This document shows positions 1-46,563 of a stretch of DNA of 64,000 nucleotides, piece after piece. The DNA comes from Fimbriimonadales bacterium. Lineage in GTDB: Bacteria; Armatimonadota; Fimbriimonadia; Fimbriimonadales; JABRVX01. The stretch lies in the NCBI GenBank assembly GCA_045862955.1, contig BTVI01000003.1, forward strand, positions 40,762-104,761. Direction: 5' to 3'. Numbering within the stretch: the stretch's first letter is position 1; the number at the start of each line of letters is the position of its first letter. The position numbers were made by a program, and so were the translations under genes. The notes beneath the pieces were generated by a model. It had not been told where the DNA came from. It did no database searches and was given only the letters and a program-made list of their open reading frames with translations.

Positions 1-30
1 GGCGGGCCCACTCGAGTCGCATGATGTAAG

Positions 31-96
31 CAAATCCACAAAAAAAAAAGTACACAAGTAACTATTGACAAAACCTGGTGGGTAGGGCAGTATATA
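31..96 (+). promoter_or_regulatory. AT-rich island upstream of the first gene: A10 tract (40-49), perfect -35-like TTGACA (65-70), TATATA (91-96)
   Basis: Read directly. The region is strikingly AT-rich for this genome. Spacing from TTGACA to TATATA is 20 nt, which is non-canonical; a weaker CAGTAT lies at 17 nt. Confidence 0.3.
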
Positions 97-127
97 AGTG
101 CTGTTGGGCTAGTGCGTGGAAACCGAG

Positions 128-1336
128 ATGCGAACGCATGTGATGAAGCCTTATACGATAGCTGCCGCCGCATACGTCCTGGCGGGCGTAGGGGGTGTCG
201 GAGCGGTGTTACTGCACGTTGGCGAACCTCGGCAGTACTCGGAACCCGTCTTCTACTATGCTCCCGACTGCCCCGGCTGTGGTGACGTGCTGCCCTCTAT
301 AAAGCAGTTGGCAGGCTTGCGTTACGTGGATATCTCGCAGGCAGACGGATACGAGCGGGCTGTCGCGGCGCAAGGCAGCCCCGAGGTCGAGGTTCCATAT
401 CTGCAACTCGTCGTAGCCGGCTCACTCCGTACTGCGGTGGGCTCGGACGAGGTCTCGGCTCTAGCCCATGCGGTCACTGCTACCGACCGCGAACGAGAGA
501 CCTCGTTCAAGGTGGCTGTTGGGCTGCTTGGAATAGTCCTGCTTGCCGGCGCCGCGTCCTGGGCTTGGCTGGGCGAGCTGGCCCCTCCTGCGGGCGTTCT
601 TCTCTCGCTTCTGGCGGCGATGAGGCCGTGCACGGCATGCGCGTCGGGGGATCGCCTGCTGAGTGCGGCAGCCTCGGTTCTGGGCGTGGCCGTCTTCCTT
701 TGCATCATGGTGGCAGCCCGAGCGCAGGCGCCGCCGAGACACGTGGCGGCCTGGCTGTGCGTAGCCGGAGCCATAGTACAGGCGGGCATGCTGGTAGTAG
801 CTCCGAAATTCTGTGTTCCGTGCCTCGGGGTAGGCCTATGCTTCCTGCTCGGCGCCAAGATGCTGCCCAACCTGCCCGTGCCTACCGTGTCGCATCCCCA
901 GAGGTCTCGCGCATGGACAGTCTTCGCCGGGGCGGCACTAGGGTGCAGCGTTGCACTGCAGGCCGCCTCATCGTCGTACTGGCCCGTTCCCAGCGGAGGT
1001 CGCCCCATCGCTGAGTATCGGGGCAAAGAGGCATCGGAGCTTGTCGGCATGCTCCCCGAGGGAGCGCCCCGGCTCGTGGTGCTGGTGGTGGCGGGGTGCG
1101 AGGCATGCCAACGTGCGGTGGGGGCGCTCACGAGGGGCGGGGTGCCCTTCATTGCAGTGCAGAGATGCAGCGAAGCTGCCGGTCCACCCTGCTTCGCCGA
1201 TGCAGCGCTAGACACCGCATACCCCACCTTTCTGGTGCTGGACGAGAGCGGGCGGATCGAGAGGATTTCGGCGGGATGGCCTTCGGGTGCAACCGCCGAT
1301 GAAGCCGTCGAGTATTACAGGAGGTGTACGCAGTGA
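128..1336 (+). CDS. Polytopic membrane thiol-disulfide oxidoreductase with two thioredoxin-fold domains (TRX-CPGC / ~6 TM with CTAC and CVPC / TRX-CEAC)
   Basis: ORF 116..1336, with ATG at 128; GTG 116 and ATG 143 are alternative starts. It has an N-terminal TM helix, a thioredoxin-like segment with CPGC, further hydrophobic helices carrying CTAC and FCVPC, and a C-terminal thioredoxin-like segment with GCEAC. Stop TGA 1334-1336 overlaps the GTG start of the next gene. Confidence 0.7.
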   Translation: MRTHVMKPYTIAAAAYVLAGVGGVGAVLLHVGEPRQYSEPVFYYAPDCPGCGDVLPSIKQLAGLRYVDISQADGYERAVAAQGSPEVEVPYLQLVVAGSLRTAVGSDEVSALAHAVTATDRERETSFKVAVGLLGIVLLAGAASWAWLGELAPPAGVLLSLLAAMRPCTACASGDRLLSAAASVLGVAVFLCIMVAARAQAPPRHVAAWLCVAGAIVQAGMLVVAPKFCVPCLGVGLCFLLGAKMLPNLPVPTVSHPQRSRAWTVFAGAALGCSVALQAASSSYWPVPSGGRPIAEYRGKEASELVGMLPEGAPRLVVLVVAGCEACQRAVGALTRGGVPFIAVQRCSEAAGPPCFADAALDTAYPTFLVLDESGRIERISAGWPSGATADEAVEYYRRCTQ

Positions 1337-1412
1337 AGCTCGACACGTTGCTGAGGAAATCCTGGCGCGGCGCCGTTGCCGTGCTTGGCGTGACGATGAT
1401 TCTGGGGCTGAT
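1078..1412 (+). repeat. High-identity duplicated block, copy 1 (3' end of the oxidoreductase gene plus the leader of the Cys-rich gene); partner at 3118-3452
   Basis: Aligned by eye at offset +2040. I count about nine mismatches over ~335 nt. Similarity ends abruptly at 1412/3452. Confidence 0.9.
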
Positions 1413-1731
1413 CCAGATGCCCGGCAGCGGGCAGGTGCCGCCACCCATAGACCCCGATGACTGCAAGCCGAGCGTTCAATCAGACACGGGGTGCAAGGAC
1501 TTCCAGTATATGTGCAGCCTACTAGGCTGGAACTGGCAGATCATCGTAGAATGCCACAGGTGGTGTTGCTATCGCGATGGATACCTATACGCGACGATCT
1601 GGGAAGTACCCTCGGCGTGTGACTGTACGCAGAACCGGACCGAGTGCTGTTCGATCTTCTTCCCGAGAAACTGCATGGAGACTGCACAGCACATGCAGAG
1701 CACGAAGCCATGCCCGCAGGTTGAGCGCTGA
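1333..1731 (+). CDS. Secreted or signal-anchored cysteine-rich protein, variant 1 (12 Cys in ~100 aa mature region)
   Basis: In-frame GTG 1333 lies 8 nt after AGGAGG (1319-1324), with a GTGA overlap on the upstream stop. The leader is basic then hydrophobic (KLDTLLRKSWRGAVAVLGVTMILGLI). The Cys framework is C-9-C-6-C-12-C-3-CC-16-C-1-C-6-CC-7-C-12-C. A paralogue lies at 3373..3762. Confidence 0.75.
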   Translation: MKLDTLLRKSWRGAVAVLGVTMILGLIQMPGSGQVPPPIDPDDCKPSVQSDTGCKDFQYMCSLLGWNWQIIVECHRWCCYRDGYLYATIWEVPSACDCTQNRTECCSIFFPRNCMETAQHMQSTKPCPQVER

Positions 1732-1911
1732 GGTTCTATGAGGAGTGACCAAGGCCGGGTACCCGGACGTGCTCGTCGCTCTCCGTTCGGGCGGTACTGC
1801 TGGGCGATCGTGCAGGGGAAAATGCGCGTGGCCCGCGGTGTCGGACGCCACTCTCCCCCGCGCGGGGCCGAGAGGTCGTTGTCGGTTATCACGTAGGAGG
1901 GGAAATCGGAC

Positions 1912-2322
1912 ATGAGCGGACTGGCGGATGAGATTCGATCGTGGCGTCCAATATACCAGTGCGTGGCGCTAGGGGCGGCCGCAGGATTCACGTTCGGCGT
2001 CTTCGCCATGGTAGGCTACTACGTCCTCGGGGAATTCAGAGGTGAGCCGACGCAGACTGTCGCTATCAGCACCCTACTCTGTGCACTTGTCATAGCGCCT
2101 TGCGAGTCTCGGTGGGGCAGAGCCGGCTTGATCTGGGCGAACGCAGCCCTAGCCGTAGTCTGGATCGCGTTCTACTTGGTGGCTGCAGCCTACACCGGCC
2201 GCGTGTTCGTCGTCGGAGGTCTACGCGGCACTATCGTGGTGCTAACCGTGCTGCCCCTGCTAGCGGCGGGCAGTAGTGTGCTGTACGTACGGTTTCGGCA
2301 TAGTCTGATGGTTGGTCGCTAA
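1912..2322 (+). CDS. Small 4-TM membrane protein (family type 1)
   Basis: ATG 1912 follows a gtaggagggg RBS. The 136-aa product has four hydrophobic helices. Paralogues lie at 3911..4327 (diverged) and 4353..4744 (degraded). Confidence 0.7.
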   Translation: MSGLADEIRSWRPIYQCVALGAAAGFTFGVFAMVGYYVLGEFRGEPTQTVAISTLLCALVIAPCESRWGRAGLIWANAALAVVWIAFYLVAAAYTGRVFVVGGLRGTIVVLTVLPLLAAGSSVLYVRFRHSLMVGR

Positions 2323-2332
2323 GAGGTGTTGT

Positions 2333-3061
2333 ATGCTCAGGCGTGGTGTGGGACTAACGCTCGTGGAGCTACTCGTGGTCACCGCAGTGATCGCCGCGCT
2401 CGCTGCGATTCTGTATCCGGTAGTCACAGTCGCACGGAAACGTGGGCAGAGCGCTCAGATCGTGAGTAACATGCGACAGCTCGCACAAGCGGTTAATGTA
2501 TATATGGATGACTACTGCCTGCGTTTGCCACCCTTAGATCCCAGGCCTCTACTGAAGAACCCGGCGGTCAGAGCCATCGCCTACTACCCACACAAGATGG
2601 CGACGCGGTCGGAGATGGACAGCGCACCGAGAGAAGAAGTTCCATTCCTCGGAGACTACGTGTACTGCCGGGAGGTGATCGGGCCGTCCGTTGGCTACGT
2701 GGTGTTTGATCACTGGCCAGACTTCTGGCGCGACCCCGACGCTGTGTGGAACCACTACTGGACGGGCGTTCCGGCTTCCCCTGTCATCCTGGTATCCCTG
2801 CACGACGCGGGCTTTCACATGCTACCCCGCCAGAAGCCGCTGTGGGCGGTCTTCGACACCAAGTATGATGATCCGCCGCCGCCACCGTGGCTTCGTTTTC
2901 CCCCTAGGGTGCTGCGCTGTCGGCTGGACACTTCGGTGCGCACGTACCGTATCTTGAGGCACATGCAGACGAACATGGTCTTCTCCTATCTGCCGCTCTG
3001 TAGGAACAGGTTTGTCTGCTGTAGGACGTGTGAGGAGGCTGGTCAATACTGTTCGGAATAG
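2333..3061 (+). CDS. Prepilin-type N-terminal cleavage/methylation domain protein with Cys-rich C-terminal tail (pseudopilin, variant 1)
   Basis: ATG 2333 follows GAGGTG. The N-terminus G/LTLVELLVVTAVIAALAAILYPV is a class III signal with Glu at +5. The C-terminal tail is CRNRFVCCRTCEEAGQYC. There is no H-X9-DG motif. Confidence 0.8.
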   Translation: MLRRGVGLTLVELLVVTAVIAALAAILYPVVTVARKRGQSAQIVSNMRQLAQAVNVYMDDYCLRLPPLDPRPLLKNPAVRAIAYYPHKMATRSEMDSAPREEVPFLGDYVYCREVIGPSVGYVVFDHWPDFWRDPDAVWNHYWTGVPASPVILVSLHDAGFHMLPRQKPLWAVFDTKYDDPPPPPWLRFPPRVLRCRLDTSVRTYRILRHMQTNMVFSYLPLCRNRFVCCRTCEEAGQYCSE

Positions 3062-3115
3062 CCTCCGACGACGTCGGGGCGAAGCCCCCCTGTCTGCTCG
3101 GTAGCGCCAGGCGAC

Positions 3116-3376
3116 TTGGTGCTGGTGATGGCGGGGTGCGAGGCGTGCGAGCGTGCGGTGGGGGCGCTCACGAGGGGCGGGGTGCCCTTCATTGCAGTGC
3201 GGAGATGCAGCGAAGCTGCCGGTCCACCCTGCTTCGCCGATGCAGCGCTAGACACGGCATACCCCACCTTTCTGGTGCTGGACGAGAGCGGGCGGATGGA
3301 GAGGATTTCGGCGGGATGGCCTTCGGGTGCAACCGCCGATGAAGCCGTCGAGTATTACAGGAGGTGTACGCAGTGA
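3116..3376 (+). pseudogene. 3' fragment of an oxidoreductase paralogue (C-terminal thioredoxin-fold domain only); may still be translated as an ~82-86 aa CxxC mini-protein
   Basis: It matches codons ~322-406 of the 128..1336 gene almost exactly and keeps GCEAC. No upstream TM or TRX1 portion is present. In-frame TTG 3116 and ATG 3128 exist. Its stop overlaps the next gene's GTG, as in copy 1. Confidence 0.6.
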
Positions 3377-3452
3377 AGCTCGACACGTTGCTGAGGAAAT
3401 CCTGGCGCGGCGCCGTTGCCGTACTTGGCGTGACGATGATTCTGGGGCTGAT
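3118..3452 (+). repeat. High-identity duplicated block, copy 2; partner at 1078-1412
   Basis: Same alignment as above. Confidence 0.9.
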
Positions 3453-3762
3453 ACCGGTGCACACGTTGGGACAGGGAACGCCCCCGCCGCCGATGCAGTG
3501 CACGACCACTTCCCATGGGATGTTCGGCTGCAAGGACTACCCTGGTTCATGCTCAACCTCAGAGACTAACTGGGACATTATCGTCGCTTGCGATCGCAAG
3601 TGCTGTTATGTCGAAGGACAACTCTACTCCGAGACGTGGACTCTTTCGTCTAACTGCTGGTGCGTTCAGCTGCAGGGCTGCTGCGATTATAATCGCAATT
3701 GCACACAGACGGCGGACATGATCAAGGACAGGTGGCCCTGCCCGCGATACCAGCAGCAGTAG
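3373..3762 (+). CDS. Secreted or signal-anchored cysteine-rich protein, variant 2 (12 Cys)
   Basis: Same RBS, GTG start and leader as variant 1, with one nucleotide difference in the leader. The mature region is highly diverged but keeps the framework C-9-C-6-C-12-C-3-CC-16-C-1-C-5-CC-5-C-12-C. Confidence 0.75.
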   Translation: MKLDTLLRKSWRGAVAVLGVTMILGLIPVHTLGQGTPPPPMQCTTTSHGMFGCKDYPGSCSTSETNWDIIVACDRKCCYVEGQLYSETWTLSSNCWCVQLQGCCDYNRNCTQTADMIKDRWPCPRYQQQ

Positions 3763-3910
3763 GAGCTTAGCAGCATGAGGCTTGAGAACGGCGGGCACAC
3801 CGCGAGTGGCTACGCGCAGGGCCTCAGGTCACACCCTCCCAGGGAGGAATTGGCGCGTGAGGAACCAGCCCCGCTTGTCGTGTTGGCGAACTTCTGAAAG
3901 AGGAATCTAA

Positions 3911-4327
3911 GTGGACGTTAGGTATCGCGGCATTTGGGACGAGGTGAGGGCATGGCCTGCATGGGTCCGTGTTCCGGCTGTCGGTGCCGCTGCCGGCGCT
4001 TCCTTTGGGGTGTTTGCATCGGTGGGGTACTATTTGGTTGGGCAGTACCGTGGTAGGCCATGGGAGATCGCCATCATCGCTGCTTTGTGGGGCGCTGCAG
4101 TTGTCGCTCCTCTGCACAACAGGTACGGCCGCGCAGCAATAGCATATGCCACCTTGCTAGCAGCAACCTTGTGGCTGCCGTTCTCTGTGTACACGGGCCA
4201 GCTTACCGCGGAGCACATGGCCACCGAGCTCTTCTATACTATTCTGTACGTCACGACATTGCCGCTCCTATCCGTCGGCACGTCGACGGTCTATACACTG
4301 ATGGAGCGGGCAATGCGTGGGCACTAG
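3911..4327 (+). CDS. Small 4-TM membrane protein (family type 2, diverged paralogue)
   Basis: GTG 3911 follows AGAGGA. The 138-aa product has the same helix layout as the 1912 gene, including the shared ...GVFA.VGYY.(V/L)G(E/Q)(F/Y)RG... segment, but low overall identity. Confidence 0.7.
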   Translation: MDVRYRGIWDEVRAWPAWVRVPAVGAAAGASFGVFASVGYYLVGQYRGRPWEIAIIAALWGAAVVAPLHNRYGRAAIAYATLLAATLWLPFSVYTGQLTAEHMATELFYTILYVTTLPLLSVGTSTVYTLMERAMRGH

Positions 4328-4352
4328 CGGTACATCCGACGAGGAGCGCTAA

Positions 4353-4744
4353 TTGGGGACGGGCGGACTAGCGGATGAGATTCGATCGTGGCGTCCAATA
4401 TACCAGTGCATGGCGCTAGGAACGGCCGCAGGATTCGCCTTCGGCGTCTTCGCCACGGCAGGCTACTACGTACTCGGGCAATTCAGAGGTGAGCCGATGC
4501 AGACTGTCGCTATCAGCACCCTACTCTGTGCACTTGTCGTAGGGCCTTGCGAGTTTCGGTGGGGCACAGCCGGCTTGATCTGGGCGAACGCAGCCCTAGC
4601 CCTAGTCTGGATCGGGTTCTACTTGGTGGCTGCAGCGGAGGTCCACTCGGCACTATCGTGCTGCTAACCGCGCTGCCCCTGCTAGCGGCGGGCAGTAGCG
4701 TGCTGTACGTTCTGTTTCGGCATCGTCCGATGGTCGGTCGCTAG
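4353..4744 (+). pseudogene. Degraded copy of the type 1 4-TM gene (start codon and RBS lost, 25-nt deletion causing a frameshift)
   Basis: ORFs 4353..4667 and 4547..4744 together reproduce the 1912..2322 protein. The segment ctacaccggccgcgtgttcgtcgtc, present near 2195 in copy 1, is absent near 4637. The ATG context acatgagcgg is replaced by acgggcgg. Confidence 0.7.
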
Positions 4745-4754
4745 GAGGTGTCGT

Positions 4755-5489
4755 ATGCTTAGGCGTGTCGTCGCACTGACGCTGATAGAGCTACTCGTGG
4801 TCATTGCAGTGATCGCCGCGCTCGCTGCGATTCTGTACCCTGTCATCTCGGGAGCGCGGAAACGTGGGCAGAACGCTCAGATCGTGAGTAACATGCGGCA
4901 GCTCGCACAAGCGGTCAATGTCTACATGGAGGACAACCACCTGCGTCTTCCGCCCTTCGACCCTAGGCCGCTGCTGAAGAACCCGGCGGTCAGAGCCATC
5001 GCCTACTACCCGCACAAGATGGCAACGCGGTCGGAGATGGACAGTGCACCCAGAGAAGAGGTTCCATTCCTCGGAGACTATGTGTACTGCCGGCAGGTGG
5101 TCGGAGTCTCTGCAAACTACTTCGTGGTTGAGCGCTGGCCCGACGTCATTTGGCGCGACCCCGACGCCGTGTGGCGCAACTACTGGACAGACATTTCGGC
5201 GTCACCTGTCATCCTGGTATCCCTGCACGACGCGGGCTTTCAGATGCTGCCCCGCCAGCAGCCGCTCGGGGACTCCGTCCCGGACACTGAACACGACAAG
5301 CCGGTCAGACCACCGCCGGTGAACTTCCCGCCGAGGGTCCTTAGGTGTAGGCTGGACACTTCGGTGCGGACGTATCGAATCGTGGAGCACATGCAAACGA
5401 ACATGGGATTCTCGTATATCCCGTTGTGTATGAACAAGTATGCCTGCTGCAAGCACTGCCAAGAGGCGGGCCAGGACTGCTCCGAATAG
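4755..5489 (+). CDS. Prepilin-type N-terminal cleavage/methylation domain protein with Cys-rich C-terminal tail (pseudopilin, variant 2)
   Basis: ATG 4755 follows AGGAGGTG. The N-terminus is [23 protein letters not shown]. The C-terminal tail is CMNKYACCKHCQEAGQDC. Confidence 0.8.
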   Translation: MLRRVVALTLIELLVVIAVIAALAAILYPVISGARKRGQNAQIVSNMRQLAQAVNVYMEDNHLRLPPFDPRPLLKNPAVRAIAYYPHKMATRSEMDSAPREEVPFLGDYVYCRQVVGVSANYFVVERWPDVIWRDPDAVWRNYWTDISASPVILVSLHDAGFQMLPRQQPLGDSVPDTEHDKPVRPPPVNFPPRVLRCRLDTSVRTYRIVEHMQTNMGFSYIPLCMNKYACCKHCQEAGQDCSE

Positions 5490-5501
5490 CGGTAGACGAC
5501 A

Positions 5502-7703
5502 TCAGGGCGACGGTGCGGTTGCCTGCTCGGTAGAACCCGGCGACTTGTAGGAAGGCAGCGGGATGCGCCATGCGCCGCGCCCGTGCGTGGCAGCCGTCAG
5601 GTAGCCGGTGCGCCGGTTGAGCGATAGGCTCTCGACCGGAGTGTGCGGGATGCCCTTGCCGAAGCGCTTCCACTGCCCTCCCCCGGTGTTCGACACGAAC
5701 ACGCCGCAATCCAGCGCCACGTAGATGTCGTCCGGTCGGGTAGGGTCAATGGCGATGTGACGCACGGGAGCATCCGGAAGGTTGTCATCTACCGAGCGCC
5801 AGGAACCACCCGCGTTTTCCGTGAGGAACACGTGCTTGTTACCGAACCCGGCCAGCCCGACGATCACCCTACGCGGCGAGCGAGGGTCTACGGCGACCCA
5901 AGTGATCCACTGCGCGGGCAGTCCCGCCGAGATGTCGTACCACTGTTCACCCGTGTTAGGAGTGACCCACATCCGCCCCCACCGGTTGCCGCAGTAGATC
6001 ACCTCGGACTTGCCATAGGCGATACCAATCGCGGATATGGGGCCGATGTCACCGCTGATAACCTTCCACGTGTCGCCCCCATCGGTGGTGCGCGACGCGC
6101 GGAGGGCCCCCGCAACCAGGATGTCCGGGTCGTTCGGGTCCATGGCATAGGGTGCATAGAACAGCGCGCCCGTGCGGTCGATCCTATCGGCGATGGACTG
6201 CCAGCTCTCGCCCCCGTCGTCCGACTGATACATGGCAAGCCCTACGTAGGTGGAATAGGCCCGCTTGGGGTTCTTATAGTTGAAGAGACTGATGCCACCG
6301 TCTCCCTGCACCGATATCCGCCACACGGGGTTGCCGCGGTACTTGAGTGTGCCGTTATCCTGTGTGCCACCAATGGCATCGTATGGGTCCCACGGGTGCG
6401 TGTCTATGGTTTCGAATTGGATGTTGGCCAGGCCGGTGTTGATGGCACGCCAGGTGTCGCCTCGGTCATAGGTGACGAACATGCCGCCATCGGTGGCGCC
6501 ATAGAGCACCTTCGGGTCGTGTGGGTCGAAGGCGTACCCGTGCCAGTCGGGATGAACGCCCCACTGGAAGGACCGTGCTGCGTCGATCCAAGTCTCGCCG
6601 CCATCCAAGCTGCGGAAGCAGCTGGAGCCCGCCGCATACACCACCTTCGGATCGTCCGGCCCGCATGCGAGGAAGTTATCGTACCAGCTGCCGTAGTTCG
6701 GTGCGTTGGGGAGGTGCACCCACGTTCGGCCGCCATCGTCTGTTCGGTACATGACGATGCCCGCATCGGTGACATAGGAGACGTACACGGTGTTGGGCAC
6801 GTCGCGGCACTGGGCGAGTTGAGTGCGACCGAAGGTGCCTGGCGCGCGCAGTCCTCCCTCGAGCATCTCCCACGTGTTCCCCGAGTCATTCGTCTTGAAT
6901 ACACCTTCTTTGGGTGGGGTCCCACCACAGGCGTAGAAGGTATCCGGCTGCTTGGGGCTGTTGACGACGTCGCGGAAGTAGCCCTCGAGCAGTCGCGTCC
7001 AGGTGTTGCCTCCATCGAGAGAGCGAAAGAGACCGCGCGATGTGGCGGCCAGCAGCAACCCCGGGATCTTGGGGCTCGCGGTCAGCTTGGCCCAATACGC
7101 GCCCGCGAACTGCTCTTCGGCCAGCAGCTCCCATGTGCGGCCCGCATCCATTGAGCGCAAGAGCCCCGCACCGAAGTAGCTGTCTCCGGAGCCGTGCGCC
7201 TCACCAGTGCCCGCGTAGATGATGTCCGGGTTGAATGGGTCGAGAATGAGCGAGCCGAAAGAGAGAGACGCCTCGAAGTCCGAGAGCGGCTCCCAACTCG
7301 CACCCCGGTTGGTGCTCTTGAACACTCCGCCGTGCGATGCGCCGATGTAGATGCGGTTGGTGTTGCGCGGGTCCACCGCGATGCTACTGACACGCCCCGC
7401 ACACTCGTACCCGCCCCATCCATCGCGGAGTTTGCTGGGACCGATGAACTCCCACGCGGGCACGTTGCCCTTGGCATCCGTCCAGTAAGGCAACTGGAGA
7501 GCGGCCAGCCAGGCCGAACGCCGCGCCTGCCACGCGGGCGCCTGGGGCGAGACGCGGAGCTGGTCGAAGTACTCCTCACGCTGCTCGAGTAGCTTGGCAT
7601 ACTGAGAGACGAGCTGTACGGGCGGGCGGTCTTGCGCGTCCTTCGGTGGGCCTATTTGTACGAGAAAGGCGGCGAGCACGACCAGCGATGCAACGAACCC
7701 CAT
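5502..7703 (-). CDS. Secreted BNR/Asp-box repeat protein, tandem beta-propeller type (GH74 / sortilin-VPS10 / Ycf48-like)
   Basis: The 733-aa product has at least 10 S-x-D-x-G-x-(T/S)-W motifs, including SMDAGRTW, SLDGGNTW, TDDGGRTW, SDDGGESW and TTDGGDTW. It has an N-terminal hydrophobic signal. Confidence 0.8.
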   Translation of the reverse strand: MGFVASLVVLAAFLVQIGPPKDAQDRPPVQLVSQYAKLLEQREEYFDQLRVSPQAPAWQARRSAWLAALQLPYWTDAKGNVPAWEFIGPSKLRDGWGGYECAGRVSSIAVDPRNTNRIYIGASHGGVFKSTNRGASWEPLSDFEASLSFGSLILDPFNPDIIYAGTGEAHGSGDSYFGAGLLRSMDAGRTWELLAEEQFAGAYWAKLTASPKIPGLLLAATSRGLFRSLDGGNTWTRLLEGYFRDVVNSPKQPDTFYACGGTPPKEGVFKTNDSGNTWEMLEGGLRAPGTFGRTQLAQCRDVPNTVYVSYVTDAGIVMYRTDDGGRTWVHLPNAPNYGSWYDNFLACGPDDPKVVYAAGSSCFRSLDGGETWIDAARSFQWGVHPDWHGYAFDPHDPKVLYGATDGGMFVTYDRGDTWRAINTGLANIQFETIDTHPWDPYDAIGGTQDNGTLKYRGNPVWRISVQGDGGISLFNYKNPKRAYSTYVGLAMYQSDDGGESWQSIADRIDRTGALFYAPYAMDPNDPDILVAGALRASRTTDGGDTWKVISGDIGPISAIGIAYGKSEVIYCGNRWGRMWVTPNTGEQWYDISAGLPAQWITWVAVDPRSPRRVIVGLAGFGNKHVFLTENAGGSWRSVDDNLPDAPVRHIAIDPTRPDDIYVALDCGVFVSNTGGGQWKRFGKGIPHTPVESLSLNRRTGYLTAATHGRGAWRIPLPSYKSPGSTEQATAPSP

Positions 7704-16064: not shown

Positions 16065-16784
16065 CTATCGCTTCTTCCGCCACCAGACGTAGCAGTTGTC
16101 GGCGTGGAGTTGATCGCGCGTCATCACCTTCGCATGGCCGTCCACGAAGGCTACCATTGCGGACTTCTTGCCGCCGTGTCGGTACTTCACAATGCCGTAG
16201 TCGGCCGTGAAGATGCGGGTGCCGAGCGTCGTGTCCATGCACTTGTATGCTTCCGGCTCTGCGATCCAGTCACCGTCTCCGTTCTCCGTCACTATGATCG
16301 TCTCGCTCGGCACTTCCACACCGTTCACACGGGCGGTCTTGTGATCCTGGTAGTCGGCGACGTTGGGGTTGACGTTGGTGAACACATCTATGTACGCCCA
16401 GTTGTTGATGCCGTACTGCCCCAGAAACTTCACCTGCGGATTGGCGTAGTAGTCGCGGCAATCCCACCCTTTGCCCTCGAAGCTAGGACAGCTGTAGAGC
16501 TCGTCCGCCTTCTGATACGGCTTGGTGATCTGCTTCCACGAGGCGTTGTCGGCGCACCAAGGTCGGTCCCACAGCCAGGTGATAGGCAGCACGTCGTCGT
16601 GGTCGCCGTAGTACATTGCGATGGCCATGCCCACCTGGCGCATCTGCTGTCCGCACACGACTTGCTTACCGTGCTCGCGAGCCCGCGAGAATACGGGCAA
16701 AAGGATGGCGGCGAGCACCGCGATGATAGCGATGACCACCAGAAGCTCGATCAGCGTGAAGGCGCTGAGCCTCGATCGATTCAT
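16065..16784 (-). CDS. Prepilin-type N-terminal cleavage/methylation domain protein (H-X9-DG-like family)
   Basis: The N-terminus is [24 protein letters not shown]. The C-terminus is ...RHGGKKSAMVAFVDGHAKVM. Confidence 0.85.
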   Translation of the reverse strand: MNRSRLSAFTLIELLVVIAIIAVLAAILLPVFSRAREHGKQVVCGQQMRQVGMAIAMYYGDHDDVLPITWLWDRPWCADNASWKQITKPYQKADELYSCPSFEGKGWDCRDYYANPQVKFLGQYGINNWAYIDVFTNVNPNVADYQDHKTARVNGVEVPSETIIVTENGDGDWIAEPEAYKCMDTTLGTRIFTADYGIVKYRHGGKKSAMVAFVDGHAKVMTRDQLHADNCYVWWRKKR

Positions 16785-44490: not shown

Positions 44491-45378
44491 CTACTGAGTT
44501 ATATCCCACTTGTACGCGTCAATGTCCGTGATCGGACCCGCGTAGTTCGCGACCACATTCGGCACGCCCGCCGCGATCTGCTGGATGGTCATGGACTTGG
44601 CATGTCCGTCCACGAACACCGTGGTGCACTTATCGGTGTGCCACGGCCAGCAGCCACCGAAAACATCCCAGGCATTCGGAAGCTCTGGGTGCCAACCCGT
44701 GTATGGGTAGTAATTGTTGCCCGGTAGCGGCCAGGTGTCCACGCGCGTTCCGTCCGGCTTTACCCACGTACGGGCAGGCGGAATGGCGATCCAGTTGCCG
44801 CCACCGAACGGCTTGCCGCTGGCATCTCTGTTCCACACCGTGTCGATGTGGAGGAACGTGTTGGCGGTCGAAGCGATGCGCCCTTCCTTCGTCGGAACGG
44901 AGCCCCAACCTGACGAAGTGGAATACACCGGGCTCAGATAATATGAGTTCATCCCGACGTTAGTGCGCAGCGACCACTCGTAGTTGCGTTCCCAGCGGTT
45001 GGCCGGTGGCGGGCATTCGCCTTCGTTGCCGTGCTGGGTTAGCTCCTTGTCGTTGGCAGTCGGGTCAGACGGGCAGCGAAAGACTGTCCACTCCTTCACG
45101 TAGCCCTGAAGGGACGTTACCCAGACTTGGTCTCTGTAGTCGTACGAACACCCCGCCCATGCTGCGGTGTGATTGGTGAGGACGAACTTGCCGTTATTGT
45201 CACCGCGATACTGCGCTTGGGCAATCGCGACCTGCTTGTAGTTCGAGATGCACTGCGAGACCTTGGCGGCTTTGCGAGCCTGTGAGAATACAGGGAATAG
45301 GATTGCAGCAAGAATCGCGATAATTGCGATGACAACCAGCAGCTCGATAAGCGTGAAACCGGTCCTTTTCATGATCAT
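44491..45378 (-). CDS. Prepilin-type N-terminal cleavage/methylation domain protein, H-X9-DG family
   Basis: The N-terminus is [24 protein letters not shown]. The C-terminus [18 protein letters not shown] fits H-X9-DG exactly. Confidence 0.9.
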
Positions 45379-45660: not shown

Positions 45661-46563
45661 CTAATCCTGCAAGTCCCAAATGTACGCGGACTGGTCGCTG
45701 ATCAACCCGTCCCAGTTCTGAAGGCGAGAACACCCCGCAGTGAGTTCATCTGGCATCAAGCGCCGAACGTGGCCGTCGGCGAATACGACCGTGAACCCGC
45801 CGTTGTGCCAGTTCCACGCACCACCATAATAGTTGCTCGACTTCGGATCCGACTCCCATCCCTTCGGGGCCATTCGCCAATAGTATTCGTTCTGCCAGAC
45901 GACCCGTGGGAAAGTGTCCCGATTCACTGCGTTGGCAGCCAGATATCGGCAAGGAGGAACCACGACCCACTGACCCCCGCCGAATGGGCGACCTAGATGA
46001 TCCCGGCCCCACACGCTGTCCACGAAAACGAGCGTCCTCGCAGGGCTGGCGATGCTAGAAAAGCGGTTGGGAAACGCCATCCAGCCAAGCGTCACATCTC
46101 GCACGAGGGGTGAGAGGTACATGAAGTTGAACCCCAAGTTCGTTCGCAAGGACCGAACGTAAAACTCGCCCCAGTCGTCGTCAGGCGCCGCATCCACGTC
46201 GTCCCAACGCCCGACGCGAGCCGGTGTTGCACGTCCAGTGTCACCGGGGCATTCGAACACGTCTACCGACCTGGTGTACGGGTAGAGAACCTGGACCCAC
46301 GTTCGGTCGTCGGGGTCGACTCTCTCGGGGATGTAAGCGTGGTAATTGGTGGGCGGGAACCGATCGCTGTACTCGTCCATGTACATCCGCAGAGCCTTCA
46401 GCACAGCGCTGAAGTTCTCGGCGCACGAGGCACGGATCGCAGCACCGCGCGCAGCGCTCATGACAGGAAACAGCAGCGCCGCGAGGATGGCTATCACCGC
46501 CACGACGACGAGAAGCTCCACCAGCGAGAAGGCCTGCCGATGCCTCAGGTTATCGCCTCCCAC
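45661..46563 (-). CDS. Prepilin-type N-terminal cleavage/methylation domain protein, H-X9-DG family
   Basis: The N-terminus is FSLVELLVVVAVIAILAALLFPV. The C-terminus WHNGGFTVVFADGHVRRL fits H-X9-DG. Confidence 0.9.
   Translation of the reverse strand: MGGDNLRHRQAFSLVELLVVVAVIAILAALLFPVMSAARGAAIRASCAENFSAVLKALRMYMDEYSDRFPPTNYHAYIPERVDPDDRTWVQVLYPYTRSVDVFECPGDTGRATPARVGRWDDVDAAPDDDWGEFYVRSLRTNLGFNFMYLSPLVRDVTLGWMAFPNRFSSIASPARTLVFVDSVWGRDHLGRPFGGGQWVVVPPCRYLAANAVNRDTFPRVVWQNEYYWRMAPKGWESDPKSSNYYGGAWNWHNGGFTVVFADGHVRRLMPDELTAGCSRLQNWDGLISDQSAYIWDLQD

Follow-up and report, generated by a model that had tools for sequence, protein, structure and literature searches.

A probable recombining cassette and a frameshifted four-transmembrane paralogue in a tandemly duplicated gene string of an uncultured Fimbriimonadales bacterium

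Near the start of a 64,000-nucleotide (nt) stretch of contig BTVI01000003.1 from a Fimbriimonadales bacterium (assembly GCA_045862955.1; the whole stretch is called the window below), a string of four genes, here named A to D, occurs twice in tandem. The second copy carries divergent versions of B and C and, behind the divergent C2, a further gene of the C1 type, C1', which is interrupted by a deletion. Was a module made of the B core and C swapped in ahead of an older C gene, as a preliminary description of this DNA had proposed, and do B and C form toxin/immunity pairs? We conclude with high confidence that copy 2 contains a recombining cassette and that C1' is a pseudogene. The function of B and C is weighed more tentatively below.

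Repeat finding and pairwise alignment of the window bore out the two copies. The locus is a same-strand A-B-C-D gene string, with overlaps or short gaps between the genes, tandemly duplicated from mid-A to just beyond D in two units (1060-3082 and 3100-5510), whose offset along the duplication is 2040, then 2447 and then 2422 nt (Table 1). In both copies the stop codon of A overlaps the start of B (GTGA; 1333-1336 for A1 and B1). B1 had been said to be followed directly by C1; this is incorrect, as a spacer of 180 nt separates them, against 148 nt in copy 2.

Table 1. Features of the duplicated locus in window coordinates (aa, amino acids; TM, transmembrane segment; L001, related genome described in the text)
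Feature	Position	Strand	Description
A1	116-1336	+	406-aa membrane protein with about 5-6 hydrophobic segments and 15 Cys (open reading frame, hydropathy)
B1	1333-1731	+	132-aa predicted secreted protein; Sec-type signal, one hydrophobic segment at residues 10-32
C1	1912-2322	+	Intact 136-aa membrane protein with four hydrophobic segments; AGGAGG (1895-1900) before ATG 1912
D1	2333-3061	+	242 aa; prepilin-type N-terminal cleavage/methylation motif, Cys-rich C-terminal tail
Duplication junction	3083-3100	none	Mid-A is joined directly to sequence like that 3' of D2, which takes in the final codons of the convergent BNR gene (pairwise block alignment)
Copy 2 mosaic, part 1	3100-3449		Resembles copy 1
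A' fragment	3104-3376	+	Second copy of the terminal 90 codons of A1 (92% aa identity)
B2	3373-3762	+	129-aa paralogue of B1
Exchanged tract	~3450-4400	+	B2 core, B-C spacer, C2, and ribosome-binding site, start and 5' end of the next C gene; bounds within about 30-50 nt
Copy 2 mosaic, part 2	~3450-4400		Resembles L001
C2	3911-4327	+	Intact 138-aa four-TM paralogue of C1; GTG start
C1' start context	4341-4355	+	GAGGAG (4341-4346), 6-nt spacer, TTG 4353
C1'	4353-4744	+	C1-type gene that has lost 25 nt between 4635 and 4636
Copy 2 mosaic, part 3	~4400-4750		Resembles copy 1
Copy 2 mosaic, part 4 (D2)	4750-5490		Alternating copy-1-like and L001-like patches
D2	4755-5489	+	244-aa pseudopilin-like paralogue of D1; 78% aa identity
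BNR/sortilin-like gene	5502-7703	convergent	3' of D2

To describe the origin of copy 2, a three-way alignment of copy 1, copy 2 and the corresponding locus of L001 (the JGI/NCBI metagenome-assembled genome (MAG) HRF45 Fimbriimonadia) was scored at informative sites. Between positions 3430 and 4360, the window differs from L001 at 16 of 931 nt (98.3% identity), whereas the BNR gene is 85.9% identical to its L001 counterpart, with a synonymous divergence (dS) of 0.72 and a uniform 80-92% identity along its length. This contrast in divergence between the tract and BNR is strong (Fisher p = 5e-32). Comparison of the single genes gave a dS of 0.009 for C2 (2 of 417 nt differing), 0.11 for B2 and 0.33 for D2, the last being a patchwork in which the L001-like stretches reach 95-100% identity. 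The proposal of a B-core and C module swapped in is therefore supported, as a tract of about 1 kb nearly identical to L001 lies between diverged flanks.

The tract starts at the end of the conserved signal peptide of B and ends in a conserved ~100-nt block with which the C gene opens. Because both ends fall in blocks common to all alleles, the B core and C appear to move as one unit by homologous recombination. Purifying selection was considered as the cause of the near-identity of B2 and C2 to their L001 counterparts and was rejected, since synonymous sites and the non-coding spacer are near-identical as well; this points to recent shared ancestry through inter-species recombination and not to constraint on the proteins. 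The tract was independently corroborated by L025, a Logan contig from three samples that is 100% identical to window positions 3393-4400. It ends before the C1' deletion, at the very point where exact runs of at least 30 nt are common to both window copies; this indirectly supports the presence of two copies.

Two histories fit this mosaic. In the first, copy 2 would have been copy-1-like, and L001-type DNA would have replaced its B core and inserted C2 before the resident C1-type gene. In the second, copy 2 would have been L001-like, and gene conversion from copy 1 would have overwritten the body of C3, the gene that follows C2 in L001, together with other patches. The earlier statement that an older C gene was left behind thus corresponds to one of the two. 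As the D pair is far more diverged at synonymous sites (dS 0.63 between D1 and D2) than the A' and C1' segments (0.075 for A'/A1 and 0.06-0.10 for C1'/C1), the tandem array has layers of different age.

The C genes themselves differ in type and in condition. As previously proposed, C2 is a diverged paralogue of C1; both are intact, with 39% aa identity (E = 5e-22), a nonsynonymous divergence (dN) of 0.65 and saturated dS. The C2 protein is identical in a second species (L024, described below), and the C1 protein is identical to NCBI AMXMBFR61_02780, from a Fimbriimonadales MAG of the Armatimonadota. Alignment also confirmed the near-identical C1 copy behind C2 and its frameshifting deletion, the missing 25 nt corresponding exactly to copy-1 positions 2189-2213. 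C1' matches C1 at 94% of nt and 86% of aa positions before the deletion and at 90% and 80% after it. Since all other members of the C family keep the longer in-frame form, the deletion happened in C1'. Its frame now ends at 4667, which leaves an open reading frame (ORF) of 104 aa with TM1-3 (AMXMBFR61_02830 at NCBI), the former C-terminus with TM4 lying in another frame up to 4744.

The start of C1' had been read as the loss of both the ATG and the ribosome-binding site (RBS). The ATG is indeed absent, but an RBS and a start codon are present: the GAGGAG and the TTG open the same reading frame as MGTGGLADEIRSW, and this context is near base-for-base that of the intact 143-aa C3 gene at the same position in L001. 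Because the transferred unit includes the start of the next C gene, C1' has a TTG start of the L001 type, and its altered start came with the L001-like tract, not through decay. The body of the gene differs from C1 by 20 nonsynonymous and 7 synonymous changes, that is, a dN/dS of about 1.1, compared with 0.15-0.23 for D and 0.05 for BNR. If omega (dN/dS) were 0.22, as in D, such an excess of nonsynonymous changes would have a probability of 3e-4. Together with the frameshift, this indicates relaxed constraint on C1', whose redundancy stems from the intact C1 found 2.4 kb upstream. Redundancy of the older C gene after the swap therefore stands in part: the gene is frameshifted and relaxed, but the intact upstream C1 suffices to account for it, and it need not follow simply from the arrival of C2.

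A search with a C profile (HMMER, exhaustive over 1.84 billion cluster representatives) recovered four real C clusters: C2, C1/C1', the third type C3 and a distant 139-aa type, P0008. Identity among the C types of one clade is 40-50%, against 75-91% for D; the first ~100 nt of C1, C1' and C3 form a common block of ~92% identity, followed by bodies that are 43-70% identical at the nt level. Word-indexed searches with C1 and a B profile returned only proteins of the locus itself and one related assembly, the L001 version, and the same search with A1 gave no match, its candidate list probably being saturated by low-complexity words.

L001 and the Logan assemblies L002 and L003 carry a single cassette in the order A, B2, C2, C3, D, BNR. 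In L001 (8774-10004), L002 and L024 (4343-5573), A lies in three overlapping reading frames, as two frameshifts would produce, and the split recurs in independent assemblies; downstream of the split A of L001, B2, C2, C3 and D are intact. L024 is another MAG of the L001 species, 99.9% identical and of the same layout. Its B2 has lost 107 nt internally (at 5806/5807, equivalent to L001 10238-10344), and the resulting frameshift leaves an ORF of 99 aa, with C2, C3 and D again intact. Extra downstream C genes, some of them degraded, are thus found in these loci, namely C1' after C2 in the window and an intact C3 after C2 in L001 and L024. No B3 was found anywhere. L024 and L001 differ at 46 positions beyond the B2 deletion, and 36 of these differences cluster in ~270 nt at the 3' end of BNR (L024 7692-7959, L001 12232-12499), which suggests another small recombination patch beside the cassette.

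The distant C type belongs to L004/L005, a remote Fimbriimonadia MAG (locus at L004 9312-10420) in which the C-like gene comes directly after a gene resembling D (45% aa identity to D1). The first in-frame ATG of the latter overlaps the stop codon of D, the called start lying 33 nt downstream. Within 10 kb of this D-C pair no homologue of A or B was found, and the neighbouring genes are unrelated. The L004 D has no Cys-rich C-terminal tail, so that this tail co-occurs with A and B.

What could A and B do? The N-terminal signal-peptide residues of B1 and B2 are all shared (27/27), their cores are ~41% identical, and the 12 cysteines of the core, which is about 100 aa long in B1, are all conserved (12/12). 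B thus displays a trait of polymorphic modules, a conserved N-terminal export part joined to a hypervariable C-terminal part. It has no match in Pfam, NCBIfam, PADLOC, PHROG or PDB, and an AlphaFold 2 (AF2) model built from the two-sequence alignment was too poor for a fold search (predicted local distance difference test score, pLDDT, 54.6). C1 and C2 likewise have no match in Pfam, DUF443 included (E <= 1), NCBIfam, PADLOC, PHROG or PDB.

A1 carries four CxxC motifs (CPGC, CTAC, CVPC and CEAC), and its low-confidence AF2 model (pLDDT 45.8) places a thioredoxin-like strand-CxxC-helix arrangement at residues 45-66 and 321-340. Its C-terminal ~80 residues gave three weak and concordant thioredoxin/glutaredoxin hints, all below threshold (residues 322-401; Pfam E = 0.094, TIGR02196 E = 0.05, PHROG 22 E = 0.031); A matched neither the DsbB/BdbB nor the VKOR models, and a PDB sequence search was empty. 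On the basis of its motifs, A1 is a putative dedicated thiol-disulfide oxidoreductase. The A' fragment keeps the CEAC motif and the GTGA overlap with the start of B2, and may serve only for keeping B2 translationally coupled. An open 86-aa frame within it, from a TTG (3116-3376), has no membrane or signal segment.

As A, B and C match no family and the AF2 models of A and B are unreliable, their function has to be argued from organisation. By analogy with known modules, a toxin/immunity function of B and C is a tentative possibility. B would be a disulfide-rich, bacteriocin-like secreted antagonist, oxidised by the translationally coupled A, and C would be a type-specific, membrane-embedded protector against its B. 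The extra downstream C genes (C1' here, C3 in L001) would be left-over or orphan protectors, C1' being free to decay since copy 1 holds an intact C1. From the architecture, B1/C1 and B2/C2 may be cognate pairs. Taken as a whole, an exchanged cassette with B as antagonist, C as protector and left-over C genes is the best explanation that we can offer, and its prospects are a little below even.

Several findings favour this explanation. First, B combines an invariant export signal and a fixed 12-Cys scaffold with a hypervariable core. Secondly, the multi-CxxC membrane protein A is translationally coupled to it. Thirdly, C is small, polytopic and hypervariable like the B core, and the two are co-transferred, the B2 core and C2 lying in one tract; this observation comes from three genotypes, with B1-C1 occurring once. 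Fourthly, further C copies lie downstream as orphans, one of which has degraded. Finally, A, and B2 in L024, have decayed in sister strains in which C2, C3 and D persist, which fits either retained immunity or a function of C with D that is independent of B.

Other findings weigh against the toxin/immunity explanation. At accepted thresholds, A, B and C have no homology to toxin, immunity or oxidoreductase families, the structure models of A and B are unusable, and none of the export or processing genes usual in bacteriocin loci can be recognised in the operon. Every locus has C beside D, and D has no role in the toxin model; the sole C cluster outside the clade adjoins a D-like gene with neither A nor B within 10 kb, which links C to D rather than to B. 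The occurrence of B2-C2 in two species reflects a single transfer event and not independent covariation. More than one direction and order of the recombination events fits the data, the layers of dS complicating both histories, and the 25-nt deletion is known from one MAG assembly, exact-protein look-ups of C1, C1', D1, D2 and B1 having found no second assembly that covers it.

These points lead to D and to the main rival of the toxin/immunity reading. D1 and D2 pass the prepilin N-terminal model TIGR02532 (17.4 and 17.5 bits, cut-off 16.3) and have a hydrophobic segment at residues 4-36; with PF07963 D scores 15.9 bits, under the cut-off of 21.2. Among full families D comes closest to GspG (E = 2e-5 to 3e-6, residues 1-55), but the GspG model TIGR01710 gives 24-27 bits against a cut-off of 88.85, so D was not assigned to a specific pseudopilin family. 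A scan of the genome collection with a D alignment found one full-length relative, at the L004/L005 locus, the other hits being generic pseudopilin N-termini, and the matches listed from a metagenome scan contributed nothing further of use. A partial match in L008 (41% identical) was set aside: it is a pseudopilin-like gene of the ordinary sort that ends in a FLDGH motif at the C-terminus and has no neighbour resembling C. The window itself holds three more genes with a D-like prepilin N-terminus, all on the minus strand (16413-16784, 45199-45378 and 46345-46563); they match D in the N-terminal part only (tblastn E = 4e-3 to 2e-7), and tblastn found no C-like neighbour beside them.

In the main rival explanation, C would be an accessory membrane partner of D, assembling, anchoring or stabilising it, B would be displayed or secreted through the resulting apparatus, and the exchange would serve surface diversification, such as avoidance of phages or predators, or adhesion specificity. 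A comparable arrangement is known from Pseudomonas aeruginosa, whose type IV pilin allele groups carry their own accessory genes (tfpO/tfpX/tfpY/tfpZ). The partnership would account for the constant place of C directly beside D, at 10 nt in the window and 10-21 nt when L001 is included, and with an overlap or a gap of at most 33 nt in L004, where only D and C are retained in a different genomic neighbourhood. It would also account for the decay of A and B in L001 and L024 beside intact C2, C3 and D, and for the restriction of the Cys-rich D tail to loci with A and B. The C gene beside D does not follow D, however: D2 and the L001 D are 91% identical, yet adjoin C1' and C3, which are only ~50% identical to each other. 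Moreover, C2 travels with the B2 core and not with D, and the C1' that adjoins D2 is broken where D2 is intact. We consider this partnership somewhat unlikely.

Neutral paralogue turnover in a recombination-prone tandem array, with no type-specific relation between B and C and with C1' as a redundant duplicate being lost, would suit the patchwork that extends over the whole length of copy 2, D2 included, as well as the A' fragment, which looks like a plain duplication remnant, the intact C1 twin upstream of C1' and the C1/C1' dN/dS near 1. Against this, the exchanged tract with the sharpest bounds and the best conservation comprises exactly the B core and C2, and from one type to another the B cores and C bodies differ far more than their flanks do (dN 0.65 for C1 and C2). 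Each type is also conserved across species, as the two differences in C2 illustrate, and such long-lived allele classes are not expected under neutrality. Neutral turnover is quite improbable. That the tandem array, the mosaic or the 25-nt deletion arose by joining reads of co-existing strains in the MAG is highly improbable. In its favour are the single MAG contig, with no second assembly found over C1', exact runs between the copies that exceed typical k-mers, and a related species in similar samples. Against it, the junction at 3083-3100 has only a few bases of microhomology, which a k-mer graph would not create and which argues for a real duplication, A' and A1 differ at 5% of positions and are hence separate sequences, L025 matches without a difference up to where the copies share long runs, as expected if both copies are present, and relatives likewise carry two tandem C genes.

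Outside the four genes, little else was recognised in the locus. Rfam gave no match over window positions 1-6000, and a pattern scan for promoters and terminators returned no promoter-like site and terminator-like matches only within coding sequence. Upstream of A1 lie a run of about ten A (41-50), TTGACA (65-70) and TATATA (91-96), the last two with a 20-nt spacing that is too long for the sigma-70 pattern scan. Small ORFs in the B-C spacers (1738-1896 and 3775-3897; 52 and 40 aa) both begin with MR and are preceded by an RBS-like sequence, and the 40-aa one is called by gene callers in relatives. They were rejected as an extra gene and are probably non-coding: comparison of the two gave no significant similarity (E = 0.28), and divergence is faster in the spacer than in C2.

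A fuller version of the toxin/immunity reading can be drawn from these elements. A-B-C-D would constitute a new antagonism system of Armatimonadota in which B would be a six-disulfide toxin exported through Sec; A, a fused oxidoreductase belonging to B, would fold it, and the dedicated pseudopilin D would serve for its release or presentation; the cassette of toxin core and four-TM immunity protein would be swapped between species at two anchor blocks, and strains devoid of A and B would keep C as protection. In this complete form we regard the scheme as unlikely.

The evidence base comprises three genotypes and one distant locus, all from uncultured organisms. Should B and C prove to be antagonist and protector, Armatimonadota would have its first described system of this type, built from protein families with no annotated relatives, in which a Cys-rich effector exported by Sec goes together with a dedicated disulfide enzyme and a pseudopilin. 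Should C work for D instead, the locus would point to a new accessory factor of pseudopilin-like families that are very large and uncharacterised in Armatimonadota and in the Planctomycetes-Verrucomicrobia group. The locus also offers a clean natural example of cassette exchange between species, with defined breakpoints and a left-over paralogue early in decay. In both cases only a handful of uncultured genomes carry the families, which limits their immediate reach.

Among known systems, the closest parallels in organisation are the Rhs and contact-dependent inhibition (CDI) modules (rhs-CT/rhsI and cdiA-CT/cdiI). Like the present locus, these have a conserved N-terminal part, a hypervariable C-terminal part and a type-specific small gene directly downstream; new modules enter by recombination in the conserved part, and older modules or immunity genes remain downstream (PMC3967940). 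Orphan Rhs modules arise and are reused by recombination and are shared between lineages (PMC3967940). The differences are also clear. B is a protein of ~130 aa with a Sec signal and 12 Cys, not a giant Rhs or CdiA protein, and shares no homology with them; the operon contains no type V, VI or VII secretion genes. In addition, only a C gene, and no fragment of an old B core, remains at the locus.

The C genes recall the immunity genes of TspA, the membrane-depolarising toxin of the Staphylococcus aureus type VII secretion system (T7SS). TsaI proteins are small and polytopic and occur in several non-identical tandem copies; their genes form strings with a single conserved 5' block, the rest being variable, and with pseudogenes within the strings (PMC9484751), a block paralleled by the common 5' block of C1, C1' and C3. 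The likeness is organisational only, since TsaI belongs to DUF443 and has five predicted TM, whereas C has four and no Pfam match. Little recombination was found in tsaI genes (PMC9484751), whereas it is evident at the C locus, which has no T7SS and lies in a diderm member of the Armatimonadota.

The coupling of the CxxC-bearing A to the 12-Cys B resembles the sublancin operon (sunA-sunT-bdbA-sunS-bdbB, with sunI), whose own thiol-disulfide oxidoreductases make the disulfides that the secreted antimicrobial peptide needs and in which a separate immunity gene shields the producer (PMC6391423). Unlike that operon, the locus lacks an ABC transporter/peptidase and a glycosyltransferase; neither the DsbB/BdbB nor the VKOR models match A, and B, which has a Sec-type signal, is about three times the size of sublancin. 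With type II pseudopilins and type IV pilins, D shares the N-terminal motif and the hydrophobic helix; its globular part, however, has one full-length relative (L004/L005) among the matches listed from the collections searched, and no secretion or pilus machinery genes adjoin it. The locus is thus of a known kind, that of polymorphic modules with left-over immunity-like genes, and what is new is the protein families, their pairing with a CxxC membrane protein and a pseudopilin, and the phylum in which they occur.

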